Shown here piece by piece: positions 3,756 through 42,950 of a stretch of 56,236 nt of DNA (position 1 is its first letter; each line of letters opens with the position of its first letter). Under the pieces are notes generated by a model that was not told where the DNA came from, did no database searches, and saw only the letters and a program-made list of their open reading frames with translations. The stretch lies in NCBI GenBank assembly GCA_018304505.1, contig JAGVWA010000004.1:1-56236 (forward strand), in the 5' to 3' direction. The stretch comes from Nanobdellati archaeon (lineage in GTDB: Archaea; B1Sed10-29; JAGVWA01). Both the position numbers and the translations under genes were made by a program.

Positions 3756-5075
3756 ATGGATAATAGTTATGTTGTTCAGGATACACGCAATGGAGGATAC
3801 CCATATATTAGCCACCAGTTTATTGTGGTTAAAGAGCCGGGTGGAGGTATCATCTATTCAAAGGAGTTTGGAAGATCCATTGCTGAAATAAACGATGCTA
3901 GTTTTGAACTGCTTTCTCACTGCACCGGAAATAACATCCTGCAGGACATAATAACCAAATACAGATGCACAGAAGCAAGCACAGTCATAGATGAATGCAT
4001 CAGCAAAGGAGTCCTATCATTTTCAGGCTTTCCAGCCTTGAAAAGCCCGGTTAACATAATCAATAAGCGCGAGTACAACCCGCACACGGTCCACATAGAA
4101 TTAACAAAAAAATGCAACTTGAGGTGTGTGTATTGTTACAATGCCTCAGGTGAGCCTCTAGAGGATGAATTATCTACCAAAGACTTTTTGCGGGTTTTGG
4201 AGATTCTCAAAAAACAAGGTGTTTTAGCAGTAACATTTACTGGCGGCGAACCATTTACAAAAAAAGACGTCATGATTATCCTGGAAGAGGCTCTAAAACA
4301 CTTCGACGTATCTATAATGACTAATGGGCAATTGCTTGGAAACGACGAGTGGTTTAACTCACTAACAGAACATGAAAAAAGCCTATTAAAAAAAGTCATT
4401 TTTTACCAGATATCGCTTGACAGCCTAAACAAAGAAAAAAATGACGCATATCGGGGCAAAGGAACCTATGACAACGTTGAAAGGGCAGTCAAACGCTTAC
4501 GGAACATGGGTCCTAGAATAACAATATCCGCAACCATAACACAGGAAACCCTTAAGGATTTACCAGAGATGGAACAACAACTAAAGAAATGGGGCGTAAA
4601 ACTAACAATGGGCGCCTTAGAATACCGAGGAAGGGCCAAACATAATAACATGAAAAATCAAATAATTCCCATAGATATTCTAAACGAATTCTCAAGTGAT
4701 GAACCTAACATACACACGGAAAAATACGTGTACTGCAACGCAATTCGTGGAACATTCACGATTAGGTCAAATGGCTTCATTAAACCATGCACCATCTCCT
4801 CAGAGGTATTCAAGGTGTTTAACAAGAACCTATGTGAATCATTGCATATATTTGAATTGGAAGATAAAGAACTTCCCCAGACCGGCTTCTTCAAACTACT
4901 GCGCACACTCTATTACTTTATTCCATCTAAAGAGGAATGCGGGAACTGTGAAAACTATTCATCCTACTGCAAGAATTGCGGTCTGGCTCCACATTACATG
5001 AAGCAGCAAGGATTGTGTAAAAAACTAGGAGGTAACATAAATGAAGTCGCCCAAAATAGATTGGTTAATCATTGA
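3756..5075 (+). CDS. Radical SAM/SPASM peptide maturase with N-terminal PqqD/RRE-like region
   Basis: CNLRCVYC, TGGEP, ISLD, C-terminal Cys cluster (YC...PC...ECGNC...YCKNC). Confidence 0.9.
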   Translation: MDNSYVVQDTRNGGYPYISHQFIVVKEPGGGIIYSKEFGRSIAEINDASFELLSHCTGNNILQDIITKYRCTEASTVIDECISKGVLSFSGFPALKSPVNIINKREYNPHTVHIELTKKCNLRCVYCYNASGEPLEDELSTKDFLRVLEILKKQGVLAVTFTGGEPFTKKDVMIILEEALKHFDVSIMTNGQLLGNDEWFNSLTEHEKSLLKKVIFYQISLDSLNKEKNDAYRGKGTYDNVERAVKRLRNMGPRITISATITQETLKDLPEMEQQLKKWGVKLTMGALEYRGRAKHNNMKNQIIPIDILNEFSSDEPNIHTEKYVYCNAIRGTFTIRSNGFIKPCTISSEVFKVFNKNLCESLHIFELEDKELPQTGFFKLLRTLYYFIPSKEECGNCENYSSYCKNCGLAPHYMKQQGLCKKLGGNINEVAQNRLVNH

Positions 5076-5187
5076 GGATGCCTATCGGAATCTAGAGTTG
5101 AATGGAAAATGTAGCGCAAAACCATGCAACGGCGGTTGCTCTGCAAAGCTCGCCAACTCAAAATTCCTGAAAAATATACTAGGTTAA
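5041..5187 (+). CDS. Candidate Cys-rich RiPP precursor (48 aa)
   Basis: MKSPKIDWLIIEDAYRNLELNGKCSAKPCNGGCSAKLANSKFLKNILG*; GGAGGT Shine-Dalgarno upstream; bridges the rSAM gene and the next gene. Confidence 0.7.
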   Translation: MKSPKIDWLIIEDAYRNLELNGKCSAKPCNGGCSAKLANSKFLKNILG

Positions 5188-5190
5188 ACA

Positions 5191-6240
5191 ATGATCATTA
5201 AAGGAACACCGGCAAGCCCGGGCATATTTACTGGAAAGGCTTACACTGCAAAGTATGAACCAGAAGACATCGACAACATTACTGATGAAACAGTGTTAGT
5301 AGGAAAAAGTTTCTGGATAGACGATGATTTACTGTTGTACAAGGCCCGGGCTGTGGTGACAGAAACCGGGGGCATGCTCTGCCACGCCGCAATAGTTGCC
5401 AGGGAACTTGGCAAGCCGTGCGTTGTAGGAATCAACGACCTGCTGTCCATCGTCAGTGCTGGCGACACTATAATTGTAGACGGGACTAACGGACAGATCA
5501 CAATAGAAAAAAACAACCTGCAGAGGGGCATGCTAGAAAACCCCGGCTACATAGACTTCATAGACAATATGAAACCCGAACCATACAAGAACATCACGGT
5601 GTACACTGAAAAATACAACGGCAAGCTCTACTTGTACTTTCCGAAAACAGACCAGAAAACAAAAGACGCGGCACTACAACACTTCAAAAAGCAGTACTCT
5701 GTCATGCAAGTGCTCGAGGCAGAGCCAAAACCGCCTGCGGTAGTGATAGAAAAGTACTCGTATTTCAAGATACATTTGGAAAACATGCAAAATAATGAGT
5801 ATGCACAGGACTACAACGAATCTATAAATATAGCAGAGAAAATGGACACAAGGAAAATAGAATCGTTTGCAAACACCGTGTACCAGAAGGCCTTTAAGCA
5901 CCTCGAAAAGTGCCTTGAACATGACGACAACAGAAACAAAAAGCAAGCACATGAACACATGAATCTATTCACAGGATACTTTGAACAGATCTCGAAAGTC
6001 AACCTGGCAAGGAAAACATTTGAACAGCTCAAGAAACAGTTCGCGGATGCTCATGAACTTGAGAACTTTCTCGTGAAGGCAGATCACGGAAAACCAGTTC
6101 CTGGGAAGCAGCACGAGCTAGAAGTTTATGCCTTGGTAAAGAAACTGCTCAATAAGAAGAGGGACGAGATAATTTTCAACAACAAGTCGCTCAAGCAACT
6201 GCAAGACCATGCATGGAAAAGGGAGATCTACTTCGGTTGA
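5191..6240 (+). CDS. PEP-utilising enzyme mobile (phospho-His) domain fused to an unknown helical domain
   Basis: GTPASPG...AVVTETGGMLCHAAIVARELGKPCVVG...VDGTNG. Confidence 0.85.
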   Translation: MIIKGTPASPGIFTGKAYTAKYEPEDIDNITDETVLVGKSFWIDDDLLLYKARAVVTETGGMLCHAAIVARELGKPCVVGINDLLSIVSAGDTIIVDGTNGQITIEKNNLQRGMLENPGYIDFIDNMKPEPYKNITVYTEKYNGKLYLYFPKTDQKTKDAALQHFKKQYSVMQVLEAEPKPPAVVIEKYSYFKIHLENMQNNEYAQDYNESINIAEKMDTRKIESFANTVYQKAFKHLEKCLEHDDNRNKKQAHEHMNLFTGYFEQISKVNLARKTFEQLKKQFADAHELENFLVKADHGKPVPGKQHELEVYALVKKLLNKKRDEIIFNNKSLKQLQDHAWKREIYFG

Positions 6241-35434: not shown

Positions 35435-37738
35435 TTAATTACTAATTTTCTTCATGGCCTCTTCGGTTTTCTTTTTGCGCCTCTGCTGCTCATGCAGTCG
35501 CGCCATGATCACTGCTGGTCCCGCGGCTCCAAGGGTGCCGCTTTCGATCAGGCGTTTTATGCGCTCGTCCATTTGTTTTCTTTCATCCACTTTTCGGTTG
35601 TACTCCTGCTTTAGTTCTGAGAGCCGTTTCCTTGACTTGGCCTGTCGCTCACGTTTTGCCTCTTCCAGTTTCGCCATTGCACGTTTTTTTAATCTCAATT
35701 GGTAAAATCGCCTCAGGGCTAGTGCTCTTTCTTCAGCACTTGCTAGATGGCCTTTGGTTTTCAACGGCGAAATATTGTAGTGCTCCAGCCATTTTCTGTA
35801 GTTTTCCCAGTACTCATTTTCCTTTGCCCAGCCTTTTCGGTGGAGTTCCTTGGCCCGTTTTTGTTTTCTTGCTGATGTTGAATACGCAACTTTTCTTTCC
35901 AGCCTTTGTTTTTGGGCTTGTTTTTTTTGTTCTTTGAGGATTTTTTGTTCTTTGAGGATTTTTTGTTCTTCGAGGATTTTTTGTTCTTCGAGGATTTTGC
36001 GACGCTCTATGGCTATTCGGTATGTTTCGCTTGTAATCATTGCGCGCGCTTCGTCACTTCCTTTTAGTCCGAGTAAGCCTGTTAGCCGTGCCAGGAAGTC
36101 GTGGGCCTTTGCCCCGATTCGTGCCTCTAATTCTCGCTTGTCCTTTCCGCTTTCTTTGTGCGCTTCCCGGAATGCTGTGTCGATGGTCTGTTCTATTTCG
36201 GGTTTTAGCGCGGCTACTAATGCTGTTCGCTCTTCGGGCTTAGTTAGGGTTGCTAGTTGCTCGTTGAGGGCCTTCTTTCCGTGGTCTGTTACGGCGTGCG
36301 CCTTTAGTTGCCTGCGCACTTCTGTTATTATCCCTCTTCTTTGTTTTTCAAGTGCTGCCCCTGCTTCTTTTTGCCTTTGTTGTTCTTCTGCACGCAGGTG
36401 CGCCTCGATTTCTGCCTTCTGCTTTTCTTCTTTCATGTGTTCCGCTTGTTCCGTAACTCGTAATAATATCTCAGAGTTTAGGATTTGCCTTGCATTACTT
36501 GGGAGTCGCAGATGCATTGTGAGGGCTGCGAGTCTTGTGTTTTTTTGTTCATTAGCCATCGTTTCGAGCGCATTAAGTAGGTTGTCGGTAATTGACTGCG
36601 AGATGGTAACCAGTTTTTTCCTGCCTTTTAGCTGCTGCTCTACTTCGCTGTCAAGCAGGTTTTTTATGGATTCAAGCGACAGCAGTTCAGTTATCTCCCC
36701 ACCAGGGACGCTGTAGCCTTCTGTGAAAAGCCTTAGTTCATACACCACCTTATCGAAGTAGGCCTTTTCCCGAGCGTTCGGCATTATAACGCTGCGGTAG
36801 GGGTTTTTGACCATTGCTAGCATGACTTTGTTGGCATAGGCTTGCGGGCTTATCACGGGTTGGACAAGCGCCTTGAGCGAGGTTGCTTTAGCCAGTGGAA
36901 TGCCTATCCTGCTCAATGTTTGGCCGTATTCATGAGAGCGAATGTTTTCAAGCACCCTGGCTTCTTGTTCTGGCGTCAGCTGGTCTATCGTGACGATCTG
37001 CACGTTTTGTTGCGCCCAATGTTCCCTTAGTTTATCATCGACTTTAAAGCCCGGCGTGGTTATCATCAATATGCCGCCGTTTATAAGCCTCCCGCGTTTC
37101 GTTTTCCCAAGGTATTTCGCTATTGTTCTATTTATGAGCGATTCTGCGCGTTCTTGTGTTCCTGGGTTCCTGAATTTTACCTCTAAGAACTTTAGCATAC
37201 TCTCATCAGATGGGGGTTGGATGCCCGGTACACTAACCCACTTTCTTGTTGTTACTAGGGCATCTGGCGTTAGTGGTAGCATGTCATAAGGCTTATCAAG
37301 CTTATATGGCTGTGATTTTTCAGGGCCGCCTAGTGGATCTAGTGTAACGTCATGTGAGAGTAATGTTTGGAATATCGATTCTCCAACAACTTCTCCGATA
37401 ACGCCCCGCGCGTCAATAAAGTGCCAGAAAGCGTCAGCAAATGTGTCAGCAAGTTCCTTGTCGCCTGTTAAATCCAGAATTTTGTAGCGCACCCCTTCGG
37501 TTTGCACGTTCAAGTTTTTTTCAAATTTGGCTGCAGCTAGGGAGAACCATGTTGCGAACATTTCGTTAAAGTTGTGCCGTGTCACGGATGTGTCTTGATT
37601 CGTAGTTTGTTTTATGAATGCACTGTAAAGGTTGCTGCAGTCCTTTTTGGTCATGTCAGGGTTTATGGACTTGCGATTCTTGAGAATGAACTTGTACGCT
37701 GCAGCCCTCACGCCTTGAGTGCTTTCATTGATTGCCAT
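35435..37738 (-). CDS. Large basic protein with PD-(D/E)XK nuclease-like domain and coiled-coil tail
   Basis: RGVIGEVVG...TPDALV...FLEVKFR; K/R/E-rich tail. Confidence 0.75.
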   Translation of the reverse strand: MAINESTQGVRAAAYKFILKNRKSINPDMTKKDCSNLYSAFIKQTTNQDTSVTRHNFNEMFATWFSLAAAKFEKNLNVQTEGVRYKILDLTGDKELADTFADAFWHFIDARGVIGEVVGESIFQTLLSHDVTLDPLGGPEKSQPYKLDKPYDMLPLTPDALVTTRKWVSVPGIQPPSDESMLKFLEVKFRNPGTQERAESLINRTIAKYLGKTKRGRLINGGILMITTPGFKVDDKLREHWAQQNVQIVTIDQLTPEQEARVLENIRSHEYGQTLSRIGIPLAKATSLKALVQPVISPQAYANKVMLAMVKNPYRSVIMPNAREKAYFDKVVYELRLFTEGYSVPGGEITELLSLESIKNLLDSEVEQQLKGRKKLVTISQSITDNLLNALETMANEQKNTRLAALTMHLRLPSNARQILNSEILLRVTEQAEHMKEEKQKAEIEAHLRAEEQQRQKEAGAALEKQRRGIITEVRRQLKAHAVTDHGKKALNEQLATLTKPEERTALVAALKPEIEQTIDTAFREAHKESGKDKRELEARIGAKAHDFLARLTGLLGLKGSDEARAMITSETYRIAIERRKILEEQKILEEQKILKEQKILKEQKKQAQKQRLERKVAYSTSARKQKRAKELHRKGWAKENEYWENYRKWLEHYNISPLKTKGHLASAEERALALRRFYQLRLKKRAMAKLEEAKRERQAKSRKRLSELKQEYNRKVDERKQMDERIKRLIESGTLGAAGPAVIMARLHEQQRRKKKTEEAMKKISN
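35923..35998. repeat. 18-bp tandem repeat x4, IL(E/K)EQK
   Basis: ttttttgttctt(t/c)gagga occurs four times. Confidence 0.9.
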
Positions 37739-37816
37739 GTTGCTGATTACGAGCAATAGATTTATAAACACTGCTCAAGAAGGGTATATTACCTATACAG
37801 GTTCCGCCTTGGCGGA

Positions 37817-38414: not shown

Positions 38415-38939
38415 CTATTCATAAACATTGGTCTGTGGCTCGTTTTTTATCGCGTCTTGCATTATCTCAAAATAGCTCCGCTGCTCTACCTTCGCAAGCT
38501 CTAAGCCAAGCAGTTTCTTCACATACGGAATGTTCTCTGCCACCGCGCTTTCAATTTCGACGTACGTGCCGACTTTTGTTATTGTGTCAAGAGTCACCTC
38601 GGCATTTTCTAAAAAGAACGCCTTGCGGTGCTTCTTGTACCGCAGCACTTCCTTGTAGCCGAGCGCCTCTATCAGTTTTATGGAATTTTCAGTGTCTGCT
38701 GTGCTTATTTCGATTTCTTCGCGCTGTTTAATGTTTGACTTCGTGTCATGTTTTCCTTTGTAGGTAATGATTGCCTTGTCCTCGAAAAAGCGAATGCGCA
38801 AGTCGAAAACATCTTCGCCCGGGCGCGCATAGTAGATGTTCTCTTCTTCCCGATCATAGATCTCGCGGGCGTTGTTTTCCTTGAGTTTCTCCTCGACAAA
38901 CTCGAGGTTGTCAACGATCAGCTTGGTTTCGATTTCCAT
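38415..38939 (-). CDS. cyaB: CYTH-domain protein (class IV adenylate cyclase-like)
   Basis: EIETK, LRIR, ITYKG, REEIE, KHRK, TLD, VEIE. Confidence 0.88.
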   Translation of the reverse strand: MEIETKLIVDNLEFVEEKLKENNAREIYDREEENIYYARPGEDVFDLRIRFFEDKAIITYKGKHDTKSNIKQREEIEISTADTENSIKLIEALGYKEVLRYKKHRKAFFLENAEVTLDTITKVGTYVEIESAVAENIPYVKKLLGLELAKVEQRSYFEIMQDAIKNEPQTNVYE

Positions 38940-39049
38940 TGCAGCTCTAAGGAAGGCGTTTAATAAGAAGCTTTACATTAGTAGTAAAGTTGGCTTAATA
39001 TAAGAATTCTTAAATAGTACATTAGCTATAATGATAATAGGTTATTTGA

Positions 39050-39190
39050 ATGAAAGCATTTAATGTAAGTCTGAATAATTTGCCAATTACGGCAGCATAT
39101 CCTGAAAGTGGAAAATGGATTGACACCTATGGAGATACTGGGGGCCAATATGTGCAAACATCTTACTCTGAACATTACACTGAAAACTAG
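39050..39190 (+). CDS. Candidate aromatic-X-acidic repeat RiPP precursor (46 aa)
   Basis: MKAFNVSLNNLPITAAYPESGKWIDTYGDTGGQYVQTSYSEHYTEN*, directly upstream of the rSAM gene. Confidence 0.75.
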   Translation: MKAFNVSLNNLPITAAYPESGKWIDTYGDTGGQYVQTSYSEHYTEN

Positions 39191-39208
39191 TTCAGAAAAT
39201 TAACTTCT

Positions 39209-40549
39209 TTGGTGGGGGTGTTATCCGTGTTCGAGGATTTGTTACTTTGGGAAGGATTGGAGGATAATGTTAATTTTGTCTTTAATAGATGCACAGGGCG
39301 ATGGTTAATTGTTGACGACGAAGCCAAGAACGCAATCATTAATTATGATAAGTTATCAGAGAGAAGAGGGATTGACGAATTATTAGAAAAATATAAATTT
39401 CTGGAAAAACTTGAGAAAAAACGAACAAGTGGAAGCCTACTTGTAGTGTTTCACATGACTCAAAATTGCAACTACAAATGTGTTTATTGCTACGCTGGTG
39501 CTGGTAAGGGTGCAAGTTTAGATATTAAAAATGCACTACAAATGGTGGATGTACTGGGAACGCAAACCAAATTCAAGAAGAGTGAAATAGAATTTCACGG
39601 GGGAGAACCATTGCTCGAGTTTGAGAAGATAAAACAGGTTATAGAATATGCAAAGAAATATGATAACATAAAGTTCAGCATGCAAACAAATGGTTCTCTG
39701 TTAGATATGGAAAAACTTGAATACTTAACGCAAAATAAAGTTGGTATTGGGGTAAGTATTGATGGTCCAGCAATGATACATGATAAGCAAAGAGTAGCAC
39801 ATGATGGGGCAGGAACCTTTGAGAAAACAAACAATGTCCTAAATAGTTTTGAAGATAAGAAAAGAAAAGTTGGTATTATAACAGTTTGTACTACAAATAC
39901 GATAGAGCATAAGGAGGATTATTTTAATTTTCTAGTTGGTAATGGAATTAAAAGTTTCAGTATAAATCCAATGTTTCCAATGAGGCGAGGATCAGAGAAT
40001 AATCAGCTGGTACCAATAAATGAGCAATTACTCGAAATGACAAAATTCATGATAGAAAAAGTAAAATCAAACAACAAAACAGTAAAGCATAAGATACGAT
40101 TCCGAAATATTGATGAGATAATATCAAAGATAGTTAATCCCGATTATTATTACAGGTGTTTGGAATCTCCATGTGGGGCGGGCAGAGATATGGTTGGACT
40201 AGGAGAAGACGGAAATGTCTATATGTGTGAGGAGCTAGTAGGGATAGAGAAATTTAAAATAAGAAATAACAATTACGATTTAGATAAAATATTAGAGAAC
40301 GGAACTAAAAGAGCTGCGGATTGTGCATCGCGAAATATAAAAAAATGCCAGGAGTGCGCATTCATAAACTACTGTCCCGGAACTTGTTTAGGTAAACGTT
40401 ATGCACAAACAGGTTCAGAAAAAGAAGCATCAACGCTTTGCGAATTCTACAAACAACTAATCAAAATATGTCTCTTGGGAATATATAAAGAGGGGTGGAC
40501 TAATGGTTACTTAGTTGATGAAAGTGATGGACAAATGGCAGGTAATTGA
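39209..40549 (+). CDS. Radical SAM/SPASM maturase (anSME-like/cyclophane-forming type)
   Basis: CNYKCVYC, EFHGGEPLL, MQTNG, VSIDG, CLESPCGAG...YMC...CQEC...CPGTC...LC. Confidence 0.9.
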   Translation: MVGVLSVFEDLLLWEGLEDNVNFVFNRCTGRWLIVDDEAKNAIINYDKLSERRGIDELLEKYKFLEKLEKKRTSGSLLVVFHMTQNCNYKCVYCYAGAGKGASLDIKNALQMVDVLGTQTKFKKSEIEFHGGEPLLEFEKIKQVIEYAKKYDNIKFSMQTNGSLLDMEKLEYLTQNKVGIGVSIDGPAMIHDKQRVAHDGAGTFEKTNNVLNSFEDKKRKVGIITVCTTNTIEHKEDYFNFLVGNGIKSFSINPMFPMRRGSENNQLVPINEQLLEMTKFMIEKVKSNNKTVKHKIRFRNIDEIISKIVNPDYYYRCLESPCGAGRDMVGLGEDGNVYMCEELVGIEKFKIRNNNYDLDKILENGTKRAADCASRNIKKCQECAFINYCPGTCLGKRYAQTGSEKEASTLCEFYKQLIKICLLGIYKEGWTNGYLVDESDGQMAGN

Positions 40550-40565
40550 ATTAGCGTGGTGCTCA

Positions 40566-40913
40566 ATGGTTGAAATTAAAGACGAGGTCGTGCTGAAGGG
40601 GTCGGGAATAACGCCACACCGCGTAGAAGGTGTAGCTAGGGTTATACGGTCTAGCAAAGATTTGGAACAAGTCACTTCTGAAGACATAGTAGTATTGGTA
40701 AATTCAACGCCATTGATGGTTCCATATTTAATAAAAGCCAAGGGCTTCATTGGAGAAGCTGGGGGGCTACTATGCCATTTAGCAATAATCAGCAGAGAAT
40801 TTGATAAGCCATGTATTATTGGAATAGAAAATGTTACTAAAATAATTGCTTCTGGTGATGCTGTGAAAATAAGTGGTCTTAGTGGAAGAGTAACGGTGAA
40901 AAAAAATGGCTAA
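40566..40913 (+). CDS. Stand-alone PEP-utilising enzyme mobile (phospho-His) domain
   Basis: LKGSGI...VEGVARVI...GEAGGLLCHLAIISREFDKPCIIG. Confidence 0.85.
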   Translation: MVEIKDEVVLKGSGITPHRVEGVARVIRSSKDLEQVTSEDIVVLVNSTPLMVPYLIKAKGFIGEAGGLLCHLAIISREFDKPCIIGIENVTKIIASGDAVKISGLSGRVTVKKNG

Positions 40914-41691
40914 GGGTACTGTTCAACTAAGGGTCGATAAGTCAATAACCGGAAATGTTAATGAGGCTAAGGGAATTCCAAAATCAATAATACTTACGGA
41001 CAAGGGCATGGAACGTGTAATCCCTGTGTTCATAGGGAAGGAGGTAGAAGTTACTAGTGTCCCTATAGGCATTGAATTAGAACAAGACGACCTAGAAGAA
41101 ATAAGAAAAGCACTTCGGACAATAACAAAAAGTTACGCTGAAACAAAAAAAGTAGTAAACATAATGAAACAAAAAATGCAAAGCATGGATAACTATATTG
41201 CAGAGAGGGAAGAACTAAAATTGGAAGAGGCGCAGGACTTTTTTGGATACTTCTTTTGGATAGCGCCATACTTCAGCAACAATGTTCCTCAACACTTTAA
41301 GAACGTCTTATCCGAAAAACTTGACTCTGATGAAGAGACGAAACAGAAGTACTGGATGCGATTAATGGTGCCAGATGCAGACCTTTATTCAATAGAGATA
41401 GCGAAAGACTGGCAAAACATGTCAATAGAAGAACTAAGAAAAAAACATCCATTCTTGACAAAACTTGGAAGCACCGATCAGATTGAAAAACCATTGAACT
41501 TTGTTGTAAAAACAAAAAGGAATGACAAGCACGAAGCACTCAGTGAGCTAGAAGAAAAACTCAGTAAGCGTGACTATCAGCAAATAAAGCAATATAGTGA
41601 TTTGATAGCTGAAATACAAATGATATTAGAAATTAAAAACTATTATTGGCCACAGATGATGAACTTACTGCATAAAAAAGGGCTGATATGA
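40906..41691 (+). CDS. Hypothetical protein of the rSAM operon
   Basis: 261 aa, overlaps neighbours on both sides. Confidence 0.75.
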   Translation: MAKGTVQLRVDKSITGNVNEAKGIPKSIILTDKGMERVIPVFIGKEVEVTSVPIGIELEQDDLEEIRKALRTITKSYAETKKVVNIMKQKMQSMDNYIAEREELKLEEAQDFFGYFFWIAPYFSNNVPQHFKNVLSEKLDSDEETKQKYWMRLMVPDADLYSIEIAKDWQNMSIEELRKKHPFLTKLGSTDQIEKPLNFVVKTKRNDKHEALSELEEKLSKRDYQQIKQYSDLIAEIQMILEIKNYYWPQMMNLLHKKGLI

Positions 41692-42308
41692 ATATTCTAA
41701 TTGATGTTGTCGGTACACTATTTGGAAAAGACAAACTAAATAGCTTATATGGTGAATTATACAAAAGCGGCTTAACTCGTAGGCTTCAAAGACGACTGAG
41801 GACAAATTGGGTTACTGGGCAACAAGTTTCTGATGAAAAAGTACTCGACCAAGCACTAGAAACACGAAAGGGGCGTAGATTTTTCAGAGAGTGGTTATCA
41901 AGAAATGTAGAAGATTTTGCGGAGCTACAAAAAGCGATTACTGATTTTAGAAGGAAAACAAAAAGCAGAGTTTTGATTAATACATCATACTCTCCAAGAA
42001 TATCAACATTTATAAGCAAACAACTAAGGGCAGATGGCGTAACTCCCCAAAAGAGAATGCAAGACGGGTATATTGTTGATGATCTGTTTAAGAGGCATTA
42101 TCGGCTAAATAAAATCGCACATGGGCACGCATATGCAATACCATCTACCGGAAATCCAAGATCACGGCAAGCAAGATTGGAAGAATTTGGAGTCAAAATA
42201 CAACCAAAAAACGTGGCAGATCTTGTGAGAATCCTTCATGAAAAAAATGTATTAAATAGGATACAAGAGCAAAAAAAGAAGAAAACAGAACAAAGGCGCC
42301 TTTGGTAG
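41688..42308 (+). CDS. Basic protein with degenerate HAD-like motifs
   Basis: ILIDVVGTL, INTS, IVDD. Confidence 0.55.
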   Translation: MNILIDVVGTLFGKDKLNSLYGELYKSGLTRRLQRRLRTNWVTGQQVSDEKVLDQALETRKGRRFFREWLSRNVEDFAELQKAITDFRRKTKSRVLINTSYSPRISTFISKQLRADGVTPQKRMQDGYIVDDLFKRHYRLNKIAHGHAYAIPSTGNPRSRQARLEEFGVKIQPKNVADLVRILHEKNVLNRIQEQKKKKTEQRRLW

Positions 42309-42365
42309 GTTTAGGAGAAAATAATTAAGGGCTGCATTTAATAAGAACATTTCCCTTTTTCATGC

Positions 42366-42950
42366 ATGAAAAATTCCTGGAACCGATTCGTTTTTCAATT
42401 GTGGGTGCCGTTCTACGACGCGTCTTTTGCACTGTACAGGAAAAACAAGGAATGGAGACTACGAGCCTTTGAGGAACTTGGCCTGAAAGAGAACACAAAA
42501 CTCCTTGATGTGGGCTGCGGCACGGGATTAAATGTTCCAATCGTGCCGAAGACAGTCGATTATACAGGCCTCGACATCTCGGAAGCAATGTTGAACAAGG
42601 CCTCGCAAAAGTTCCCTGACAAGAAATTCGTTATCGGTGATGCATGTGCGCTTCCATTTAAGGATGGGGAATTTGATTTCTTAATTAACACGTACAGCGT
42701 GAACGTCCTGCCTGATGTTGCGCAAGCGCTGCGGGAAATGAAACGCGTTTCCAAAAAGACGGTGCTGTACGACCACTTTAGGTCAGGCAATCCTATAGTC
42801 GCGTTTCTGCAGTTGCTCTCAAAGCCATTCGGTTTTTTGTTAGGCATTGACACTTTTGTAAGTATTGAGAAAGAGTTGAAAAAAGCAGGCATCGAGGCGC
42901 GCATTGAAAAGCTCGATTTCCTTGGCGCGTACAAGCTCGCAGTGTTCTGA
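42366..42950 (+). CDS. Class I SAM-dependent methyltransferase
   Basis: LLDVGCGTG, GLDISEAML, GDACALPF.D..FD. Confidence 0.9.
   Translation: MKNSWNRFVFQLWVPFYDASFALYRKNKEWRLRAFEELGLKENTKLLDVGCGTGLNVPIVPKTVDYTGLDISEAMLNKASQKFPDKKFVIGDACALPFKDGEFDFLINTYSVNVLPDVAQALREMKRVSKKTVLYDHFRSGNPIVAFLQLLSKPFGFLLGIDTFVSIEKELKKAGIEARIEKLDFLGAYKLAVF

Follow-up and report, generated by a model that had tools for sequence, protein, structure and literature searches.

In the genome of a DPANN archaeon, a compact block of five genes appears to encode a pathway for a peptide synthesized ribosomally and modified after translation (RiPP). A radical SAM/SPASM enzyme (hereafter rSAM) would cross-link a small precursor, and a split module resembling the small-molecule dikinases would carry out phosphoryl transfer; on the evidence set out below, we consider this reading reasonably probable. 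The block, here called the island, occupies positions 39050–42308 of contig JAGVWA010000004.1 (assembly GCA_018304505.1), the whole of which (56,236 nt) was analyzed and is referred to as the window. The host is a member of the Micrarchaeota (DPANN), with a source genome of 917 kb that is 93% complete. The closest relative carrying the cluster (G008) is a Candidatus Micrarchaeota archaeon, in agreement with the archaeal host proposed in an initial annotation made from the sequence alone. In what follows, G000 is the genome of the window and G008, G010, G021, and G027 are other genomes of the phylum, for which a set of 31 species genomes was searched.

According to the list of open reading frames (ORFs) of the window, five ORFs, all on the plus strand, lie within the island:

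39050–39190, plus strand: 46-aa precursor peptide without Cys, in which a short leader (MKAFNVSLNN...) precedes a core containing six aromatic-X-D/E/Q triads (ORF, triad statistics, homologous small ORFs)
39227–40549, plus strand: radical SAM/SPASM enzyme of the peptide-maturase type, 440 aa from a GTG start (Pfam Radical_SAM and Fer4_12); an alternative TTG start at 39209 would give 446 aa
40515/40518–40913, plus strand: free-standing phosphohistidine swivel domain (PEP-utilizers mobile domain), 131/132 aa (PF00391, E 2e-17; His codon at about 40776–40778)
40906–41691, plus strand: largely helical 261-aa protein whose family is very rare; candidate phospho-acceptor (substrate-binding) domain (fold match, gene context)
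41688–42308, plus strand: 206-aa protein with a predicted HAD fold and an N-terminal D-V-V-G-T-L-F motif (fold searches; orthologue in G008)

The rSAM and swivel genes overlap by 32 nt, the swivel and 261-aa genes by 8 nt, and the 261-aa and 206-aa genes by 4 nt; therefore, the genes form one packed operon. Among the five products, only the rSAM and the swivel domain have Pfam matches above the cut-off; the peptide, the 261-aa protein, and the 206-aa protein have none.

The precursor peptide

The triads of the 46-aa peptide are YPE, WID, YGD, YVQ, YSE, and YTE; five of them are of the form [YW]-x-[DE], the sixth being YVQ. None of 200,000 shuffles of the peptide reached five such triads, and a run of at least four within 32 aa was unique to this peptide across all six frames of the 56-kb window. 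The peptide with six aromatic triads that the initial annotation placed before the rSAM gene is therefore borne out by the ORF coordinates and by the shuffles.

Other Micrarchaeota genomes also have small ORFs of this make-up, each lying directly upstream of a related rSAM gene. The orthologous cluster and three paralogous cassettes have the core Y-x-[DE]-x-G-x-[WY]-[IT]-D-x-Y-[GS]-[DE] in common, and the strict heptad W[IT]DTY[GS][DE] occurs at exactly four places in 1.16 Mb (128 loci, all six frames), namely in the small ORFs directly upstream of the rSAM-swivel cassettes in G000, G010, G021, and G027. An alignment of these four peptides showed that their leaders, too, are of one type (M-K-V-W-x-V) and that all contain Y-x-[DE]-x-G-x-W-x-D-T-Y as their core. 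A profile built from them, searched against the 31 phylum genomes, recovered the same four and gave a weaker match at the start of G008:C25. The end of this contig overlaps the end of G008:C15 and supplies the missing N-terminus of the cut-off orthologous rSAM, upstream of which lie two tandem precursor genes. The first encodes 43 aa with a leader like that of the window peptide, the motif Y-I-D-R-Y-G-D, and four aromatic-X-acid triads. The second gene (L131:123–239, minus strand) has an in-frame TGA after codon 15, followed by a well-conserved W-I-D-N-Y-G-E; judging from the sequence, the TGA could reflect a pseudogene, a sequencing error, or read-through.

Over the five aligned precursors, M1, Y17, G21, D25, and Y27 are invariant, with [WY] at position 23 and an acid at positions 19 and 29. 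More distant cassettes carry other acidic, aromatic, Cys-free peptides, including one with six Y-x-[DE] in 36 aa (L125:5430–5540) and a Trp-rich one in the genome of the window (L117). Among the 13 rSAM-linked swivel loci, nine have an acidic aromatic Cys-free peptide, three have Cys-bearing peptides of other types, and one is cut by a contig end. A search of a 5.8-billion-protein database with the peptide profile returned only the four members already known, and three homologues of the peptide have already been gene-called in public records. The shuffles, together with a leader and core kept at the same position in five genomes, indicate that the peptide is real, conserved, and of the precursor type, as had been supposed.

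The radical SAM enzyme and its accessory proteins

The 440-aa length of the rSAM from the GTG at 39227 matches that of its database copy P0001, and the stretch directly before this start codon is GGTGGGGGTG. Pfam identified Radical_SAM (E 1.9e-17) and Fer4_12, and the translation contains the CxxxCxxC motif as CNYKCVYC, the sequence IEFHGGEP, and the full SPASM Cys pattern (G-x4-C, then Cx2Cx5Cx3C), which confirms the prediction of an FHGGEP-type SPASM enzyme after the peptide. The enzyme matched 74 NCBIfam models of rSAM/SPASM maturases, none of them above the cut-off. The best scores, each given with its cut-off, were those for CbpB (176.9/375), PapB (167/340), the nif11-type model (147.8/518.7), HxsB (144.2/370), and anSME (TIGR03942; 140.2/349.45); those for the cyclophane synthases were YhhB (99.9/445), AmcB (92/425), GrrM/OscB (90.4/310), and FxsB (74.2/370). 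The comparison with the XncB, FxsB, GrrM, and HaaB families rests on these hidden Markov model scores, and the alignments to curated peptide maturases begin at residues 18–41 of the rSAM. With its score against TIGR03942 so far below the cut-off, we reject the reading as an anaerobic sulfatase maturase. The combination that would have refuted the initial annotation, grouping with sulfatase maturases plus an unconserved peptide, was not observed. A thioether RiPP (sactipeptide or ranthipeptide) was also ruled out, because the substrate, with 0 Cys in its 46 aa, offers no site for thioether chemistry.

The nearest solved structure is CteB (5wgg; E 2.8e-30, 109 bits), followed by anSME (4k36; E about 5e-22) and ChlB (9gm3; 57 bits). 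Both the CxxxCxxC motif of the island rSAM and its Cys pattern for twin auxiliary clusters are shared with CteB and with anSME, which is not a RiPP enzyme; however, CteB makes thioethers and needs Cys, whereas the island precursor has none. Close relatives of the rSAM are few, with P0002 at 44%, G008 at about 45–47%, and all others at 34% or below. A scan of related loci with the rSAM alignment likewise found only G008 to be close (45%; next best 28%), and scans of metagenome contigs with this alignment, or with the 261-aa family members P0126 and P0127, gave no match. The next-nearest relatives (P0003–P0007 and P0013; 26–31% identity) are proteins of approximately 690–710 aa with a C-terminal extension of approximately 230 aa that has no Pfam family. 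By these sequence comparisons, the rSAM is an orphan clade of peptide-maturase-type SPASM enzymes. Its N-terminal 75 residues contain N-x-x-T-G-R-W-x-I-V-D-D-E, which is common to all cassette rSAMs, and we infer that this N-terminal region may bind the peptide.

The swivel domain, predicted as a phospho-His domain after the rSAM, was confirmed by its PF00391 match and by the motif GG-x-L-x-H...SRE, which is invariant in all five aligned cassette swivel domains. In a profile search against Protein Data Bank (PDB) sequences, it scored 97 bits with phosphoenolpyruvate (PEP) synthase and 76.5 bits with the C-terminal swivel domain of rifampin phosphotransferase (RPH). Its association with the rSAM is close. 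The G008 orthologue is a single rSAM-SPASM-swivel protein of more than 539 aa, and in G001:C6 a swivel domain is fused to another rSAM. The G001 protein (L121:464–2621, minus strand) has 652 aa in the order swivel-rSAM-SPASM; before it comes an ORF of 58 aa with many Cys, Tyr, and acidic residues. Among 40 relatives, the swivel gene was fused or adjacent at six of the seven best rSAM matches; at the seventh (G038), the two ORFs scanned at the locus contained no swivel domain. As judged from sequence, this arrangement indicates that the swivel domain belongs to the rSAM.

PF00391 occurs in 29 of the 31 phylum genomes, mostly within PEP synthase. The source genome (0.9 Mb) has four swivel loci beyond PEP synthase, three of which are at a radical SAM gene. 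When swivel loci other than PEP synthase, PPDK, and PtsI were inspected across the phylum (n = 25), 13 were at an rSAM gene; the other 12 had only a partner of approximately 280–370 aa without a Pfam match or were cut by contig ends. The swivel genes at 12 Micrarchaeota loci (e.g., L110, L111, L112, L116, L119, L120, L122, and L123) encode approximately 95–112 aa and are paired with a protein of approximately 280–370 aa, with no rSAM nearby, and these partners form several groups without detectable mutual similarity. From their sequences, swivel domain and partner appear to constitute a widespread two-gene phospho-His module.

The 261-aa protein belongs to a family with only eight matches among 1.84 billion representatives. 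A member follows the rSAM-swivel fusion in G008, and in G016 two copies flank a swivel gene, with a gene for a stand-alone ATP-grasp PPDK_N domain 0.9 kb downstream; G016 is the only case in which a stand-alone PPDK_N is close to members of this family. Pfam gave only weak matches below the cut-off. From the gene context, the acceptor-binding middle domain of an RPH-like dikinase had been expected before the fold search was made. An AlphaFold (AF2) model built from six sequences (pLDDT 80.7, pTM 0.75) was compared with 48,161 chains using VIA, and the top match was rifampin phosphotransferase (5hv1_A), with Z 8.3, a value in the range below approximately 13 in which VIA matches of helical models can be trivial. 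This match aligned 226 residues with a root-mean-square deviation of 4.8 Å and 11% identity, placing residues 1–260 of the model on residues 326–685 of the chain; 5hv1_A was the only chain with Z of at least 8, and the next row had Z 6.6 and 118 aligned residues. According to the report on the RPH-Lm structure (PMC4844700), the RIF-binding domain comprises residues 327–754 and had no structural homologue when it was solved, and Arg666/Glu667 at its apex are critical for the second phosphotransfer. In the 261-aa family, E242 is invariant and position 244 is K/R; both lie in the C-terminal helix, which aligns, at the level of the region, with the part of RPH that contains Arg666/Glu667. From the agreement between gene context and modeled fold, we think it likely that the 261-aa protein has the fold of the RIF-binding domain.

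Homology between the 261-aa family and three other groups found no support with hhalign: the long cassette rSAMs' N-terminal extensions of 250–350 aa (probability 0.9%, E 0.057), the approximately 280–370-aa swivel partners, and the C-terminal halves of the 340–349-aa swivel fusions. An HPF ... FYRP/YYWP echo that keeps the same order is the sole remaining lead.

The only known homologue of the 206-aa protein is its neighbor in G008 (39% identity), and among the candidates from the 5.8-billion-protein database, no homologue was found beyond the protein itself. In its structural model, a strand, a helical cap, a strand, a helix, and a strand follow one another. Almost all Foldseek rows (best E 0.012) and VIA rows (best Z 6.5) were members of the HAD superfamily, both of these matches being weak, and in Atlas, HAD families scored 0.90–0.93 by features and the structural comparison (TM 0.55–0.59) gave the PF00702 domain of P-type ATPases. 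We take the D-V-V-G-T motif to recall the DKTGT of P-type ATPases and the DxYGT of L-2-haloacid dehalogenases. The structural comparisons point to a HAD fold, in line with the HAD-like last protein of the initial annotation. Its broader suggestion of phosphoryl-transfer accessories was well founded, given a swivel domain with a conserved His, a protein resembling the RIF-binding domain, and a predicted HAD-fold protein.

Proposed pathway and alternative readings

The best precedent for a phosphoryl relay of this kind is, by analogy, the two-component RPH homologues HpeHI, CreHI, and PpsAB (phenylphosphate synthase). According to one report (PMC12167813), phenols are phosphorylated by these systems; the RIF-binding-type domain and the swivel domain are both part of HpeH, with the ATP-grasp domain in HpeI, and the Hpe pathway strips the phosphate off once the following chemical step is complete. 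The island resembles these systems and RPH in that it has a swivel domain with a GG-x3-H motif, its 261-aa protein has the RIF-binding (acceptor) domain as its best fold match (5hv1), its parts are encoded as separate proteins as in HpeHI, and the known acceptors of HpeHI, CreHI, and PpsAB include phenols, which resemble the Tyr side chain. It differs from them in that the module is split three ways, with the swivel domain alone or fused to the rSAM; the acceptor-type domain has approximately 260 aa, against approximately 430 aa in RPH, and a sequence profile detected no similarity to the RIF-binding domain; no ATP-grasp component is present; and the presumed acceptor is a ribosomal peptide rather than a small molecule.

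In the pathway that we propose, the rSAM would bind the peptide and cross-link its triads, with cyclophane-type links as the best guess. With its conserved His phosphorylated, the swivel domain would deliver the phosphoryl group to the 261-aa acceptor-domain-like protein; there the bound peptide would receive it, a Tyr phenol being the most plausible acceptor. The HAD-fold protein would then remove or relay the phosphate, and the phosphorylation may be transient, as in the Hpe pathway. A transient Tyr O-phosphate would be the most economical model, because Tyr is a phenol and Tyr residues are invariant in the precursor. As the island itself encodes no ATP-grasp domain, loading of the His would have to come from elsewhere. 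The sole PF01326 match in the source genome is a 758-aa PEP synthase frame on C3, and our guess is that the His is loaded in trans by PEP synthase.

A number of observations weigh against this scheme. The rSAM scored lower against the cyclophane synthases than against the thioether-type maturases, and the PqqD/RRE-type Pfam models (RRE, RiPP recognition element) found no match in the N-terminal 78–81 aa of four cassette rSAMs, in contrast to the RRE-bearing CteB. In the precursor, the G008 orthologues have Arg or Asn where the heptad has its central Thr, so this Thr is not an invariant acceptor. The source of the phosphate is a further difficulty: Pfam identified no ATP-grasp (PPDK_N) or PEP-binding domain in the island, and a stand-alone PPDK_N was absent from the five other cassette genomes searched. 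For the 261-aa protein, Foldseek found no match of the model in PDB at E ≤ 0.001, and RPH was recovered neither by Atlas nor by a sequence profile against PDB; because the Z value is low for a helical model and no sequence method recovers RPH, we hold the fold link to be likely and no firmer than that. The model of the 206-aa protein is poor (pLDDT 64), Pfam gave it no match, HAD included, even at E 10, and its motif I keeps the first (nucleophile) Asp without the second (D-V-V-G-T in the window, D-V-V-G-V in G008).

A bolder form of the proposal would make the island the first peptide-directed member of the RPH/phenylphosphate synthase dikinases, in which a three-way split relay phosphorylates Tyr and so primes or protects the triads for cross-linking by the rSAM, a HAD phosphatase removes the phosphate, and the whole, a new class of RiPP, spreads as a small mobile island among DPANN archaea. 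We offer this form tentatively and regard it as possible but rather doubtful. Radical SAM RiPP pathways and RPH-type dikinases are each already well known; our literature search turned up no paper describing a peptide-modifying radical SAM enzyme to which a phospho-His swivel domain is fused or with which it cooperates. Should the peptide be phosphorylated by the relay, a small-molecule kinase mechanism would reach ribosomal peptides, and a new logic of RiPP tailoring would be added. The cassette also provides a defined, short, and testable product for DPANN archaea. Because such tiny genomes keep several cassettes (0.9 Mb with four swivel loci, three of them at an rSAM gene), it suggests that the peptides matter for a host-dependent DPANN life. 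The core Y-x-[DE]-x-G-x-[WY]-x-D-x-Y-x-[DE] can serve as a handle for genome mining.

Among the other readings, a plain triceptide pathway fares best, in which the rSAM forms an aromatic-to-C-beta three-residue cyclophane at each triad and the phosphoryl proteins act elsewhere or have a regulatory role. The initial annotation had called the peptide a candidate archaeal triceptide. On the side of the substrate this stands: the triads fit the Omega1-X2-X3 definition given in a report on triceptides (PMC11499958), aromatic-X-acid is repeated in all family members (as in the six Y-x-[DE] of the L125 peptide and the four triads of the G008 precursor), and, as in the pathways of the enzymes that form three-residue cyclophanes (3-CyFEs) XncB, HaaB, HtkB, ChlB, YhhB, and GrrM/OscB, a precursor with repeated aromatic-X-X lies directly before an rSAM/SPASM gene and no Cys is needed. 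The synthase ChlB, whose chain 9gm3 is the relative at 57 bits, acts on a YDR motif, as stated in the same report (PMC11499958). On the side of the enzyme the claim does not stand in the same way, as the rSAM lies far below the cut-off of every curated cyclophane-synthase model and scores higher against others. The island also departs from the known triceptide pathways in its archaeal host, in its phosphoryl-transfer accessories, and in the almost constant Asp/Glu at X3, a strict acid that is no general feature of triceptides. Moreover, an unrelated role is hard to reconcile with a swivel domain that forms one protein with the rSAM in two lineages and is encoded next to it in most of the rest. 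Triceptide (cyclophane) chemistry is thus plausible but unproven, and we judge the pathway in this plain form to be improbable. In its precursor the island pathway resembles the triceptide pathways, and its accessories resemble RPH/HpeHI; it is a tested member of neither.

No feature of the precursor family is more conserved than the acid two residues past each aromatic one, and the NCBIfam relatives of the swivel domain include the ligases PigC and RedH. These ligases use a swivel-type module to activate a carbonyl oxygen. Both points would fit an activation of carboxylates, in which the phospho-His module makes acyl phosphates on the Asp/Glu of the triads, Tyr/Trp attack them to give ester or amide rings, and the rSAM has another job. 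This reading leaves the rSAM without a defined role, and the characterized relatives of the RIF-binding type phosphorylate hydroxyl groups; we therefore give it little credence. An equally small probability attaches to the reading that the swivel domain and its helical partner leave the peptide alone and instead control or energize the rSAM, for example by acting as a switch that depends on phosphorylation. The 12 of 25 phylum swivel loci that pair only with the approximately 280–370-aa partner, with no rSAM nearby, speak for it, as the two-part module therefore has a life of its own; against it, the 261-aa fold resembles a substrate-binding domain, not a regulator, and a chemical role suits both the HAD-fold protein and the Tyr-rich substrate. 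Lastly, the small ORF could be a chance ORF in a block that is not peptide-directed, as 46 codons in AT-rich DNA are not improbable (we estimate that approximately 3% of 46-codon frames stay open), but the triad statistics, the leader and core conserved in five genomes at the same position, and the three publicly gene-called homologues make this very improbable and, on the sequence evidence, close to refuted.

Probable insertion, other cassettes, and neighboring genes

The island has a GC content of 0.365, against 0.457 for the remainder of the window, and is the lowest in GC among all 3,259-bp stretches of the window (mean 0.452, standard deviation 0.028). In 1-kb bins, GC is 0.344, 0.373, and 0.363 from 39 to 42 kb and 0.455 and 0.433 in the adjoining bins. 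The step falls at the gene borders, with the CYTH gene on the left (0.457) and the methyltransferase gene on the right (0.465) at the level of the genome. The cluster in G008 is also AT-richer than its flank (GC 0.297 vs. 0.347). The following features lie at the edges of the island:

38948–38979, no strand: left copy of an imperfect direct repeat of 32 nt, flanked by the CYTH start codon (38939) on one side and the promoter region of the peptide gene on the other
39010–39016, plus strand: TTAAATA, a possible archaeal TATA-like box approximately 34–40 nt before the peptide start codon, read from the sequence
42326–42357, no strand: right copy of the 32-nt direct repeat, just before the methyltransferase start codon (42366)

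This repeat (D1) is the longest direct repeat in 38850–42450; its copies are 75% identical and spaced 3378 nt apart. The DNA was found in nine runs, all from groundwater and soil metagenomes. In one contig of run X5, position 38974 is joined to 42366, skipping 3,391 nt, with 13 other letters in between, as many as separate the right repeat from the start codon of the methyltransferase gene; this island-less contig is weak, with a depth of 2.9 and only 20 letters on its shorter side. The contigs of runs X3 and X4 are identical to the window and uninformative on selection. Because a 32-nt direct repeat flanks the island and one contig lacks it, the sequence data support the insertion of an island of approximately 3.4 kb into a Micrarchaeota genome. 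The AT-rich block and the horizontal acquisition proposed for it in the initial annotation are both in line with these results, the former by the GC profile and the latter as an appearance given by the GC step, the flanking repeat, and the possible empty site.

The methyltransferase gene (42366–42950) was ruled out as a member of the cluster by its GC of 0.465, its place outside the repeat, and its lack of conservation beside the G008 cluster.

Two further cassettes were observed in the same genome. One, of another type, lies at 3756–6240 of the window and consists of a 439-aa rSAM (3756–5075), a 48-aa Cys-bearing ORF (5041–5187) with the stretch K-P-C-N-G-G-C-S-A, and a 349-aa protein (5191–6240) with an N-terminal swivel domain and a C-terminal half of approximately 240 aa without an assigned family; the same layout is repeated in G010:C29 (L114), with a peptide containing K-P-C-H-G-G-C-S-A. 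The other, in G000:C21 (L117:3445–6740), comprises, in this order, a 144-aa ORF of aspartyl-protease-like type, a swivel domain of 114 aa, a Cys-free 42-aa ORF rich in Trp and Asp, a 424-aa rSAM, and a 319-aa protein.

Next to the island region, a gene on the minus strand (35435–37771) encodes a protein of 778 aa that is rich in Lys and Glu, contains EEQKIL-type repeats in tandem, and has no match in Pfam or NCBIfam. Directly left of the island is a gene of the CYTH/class IV adenylate cyclase type (38415–38939, minus strand; TIGR00318, 81.3 bits, above the cut-off), and the left repeat sits upstream of its start.

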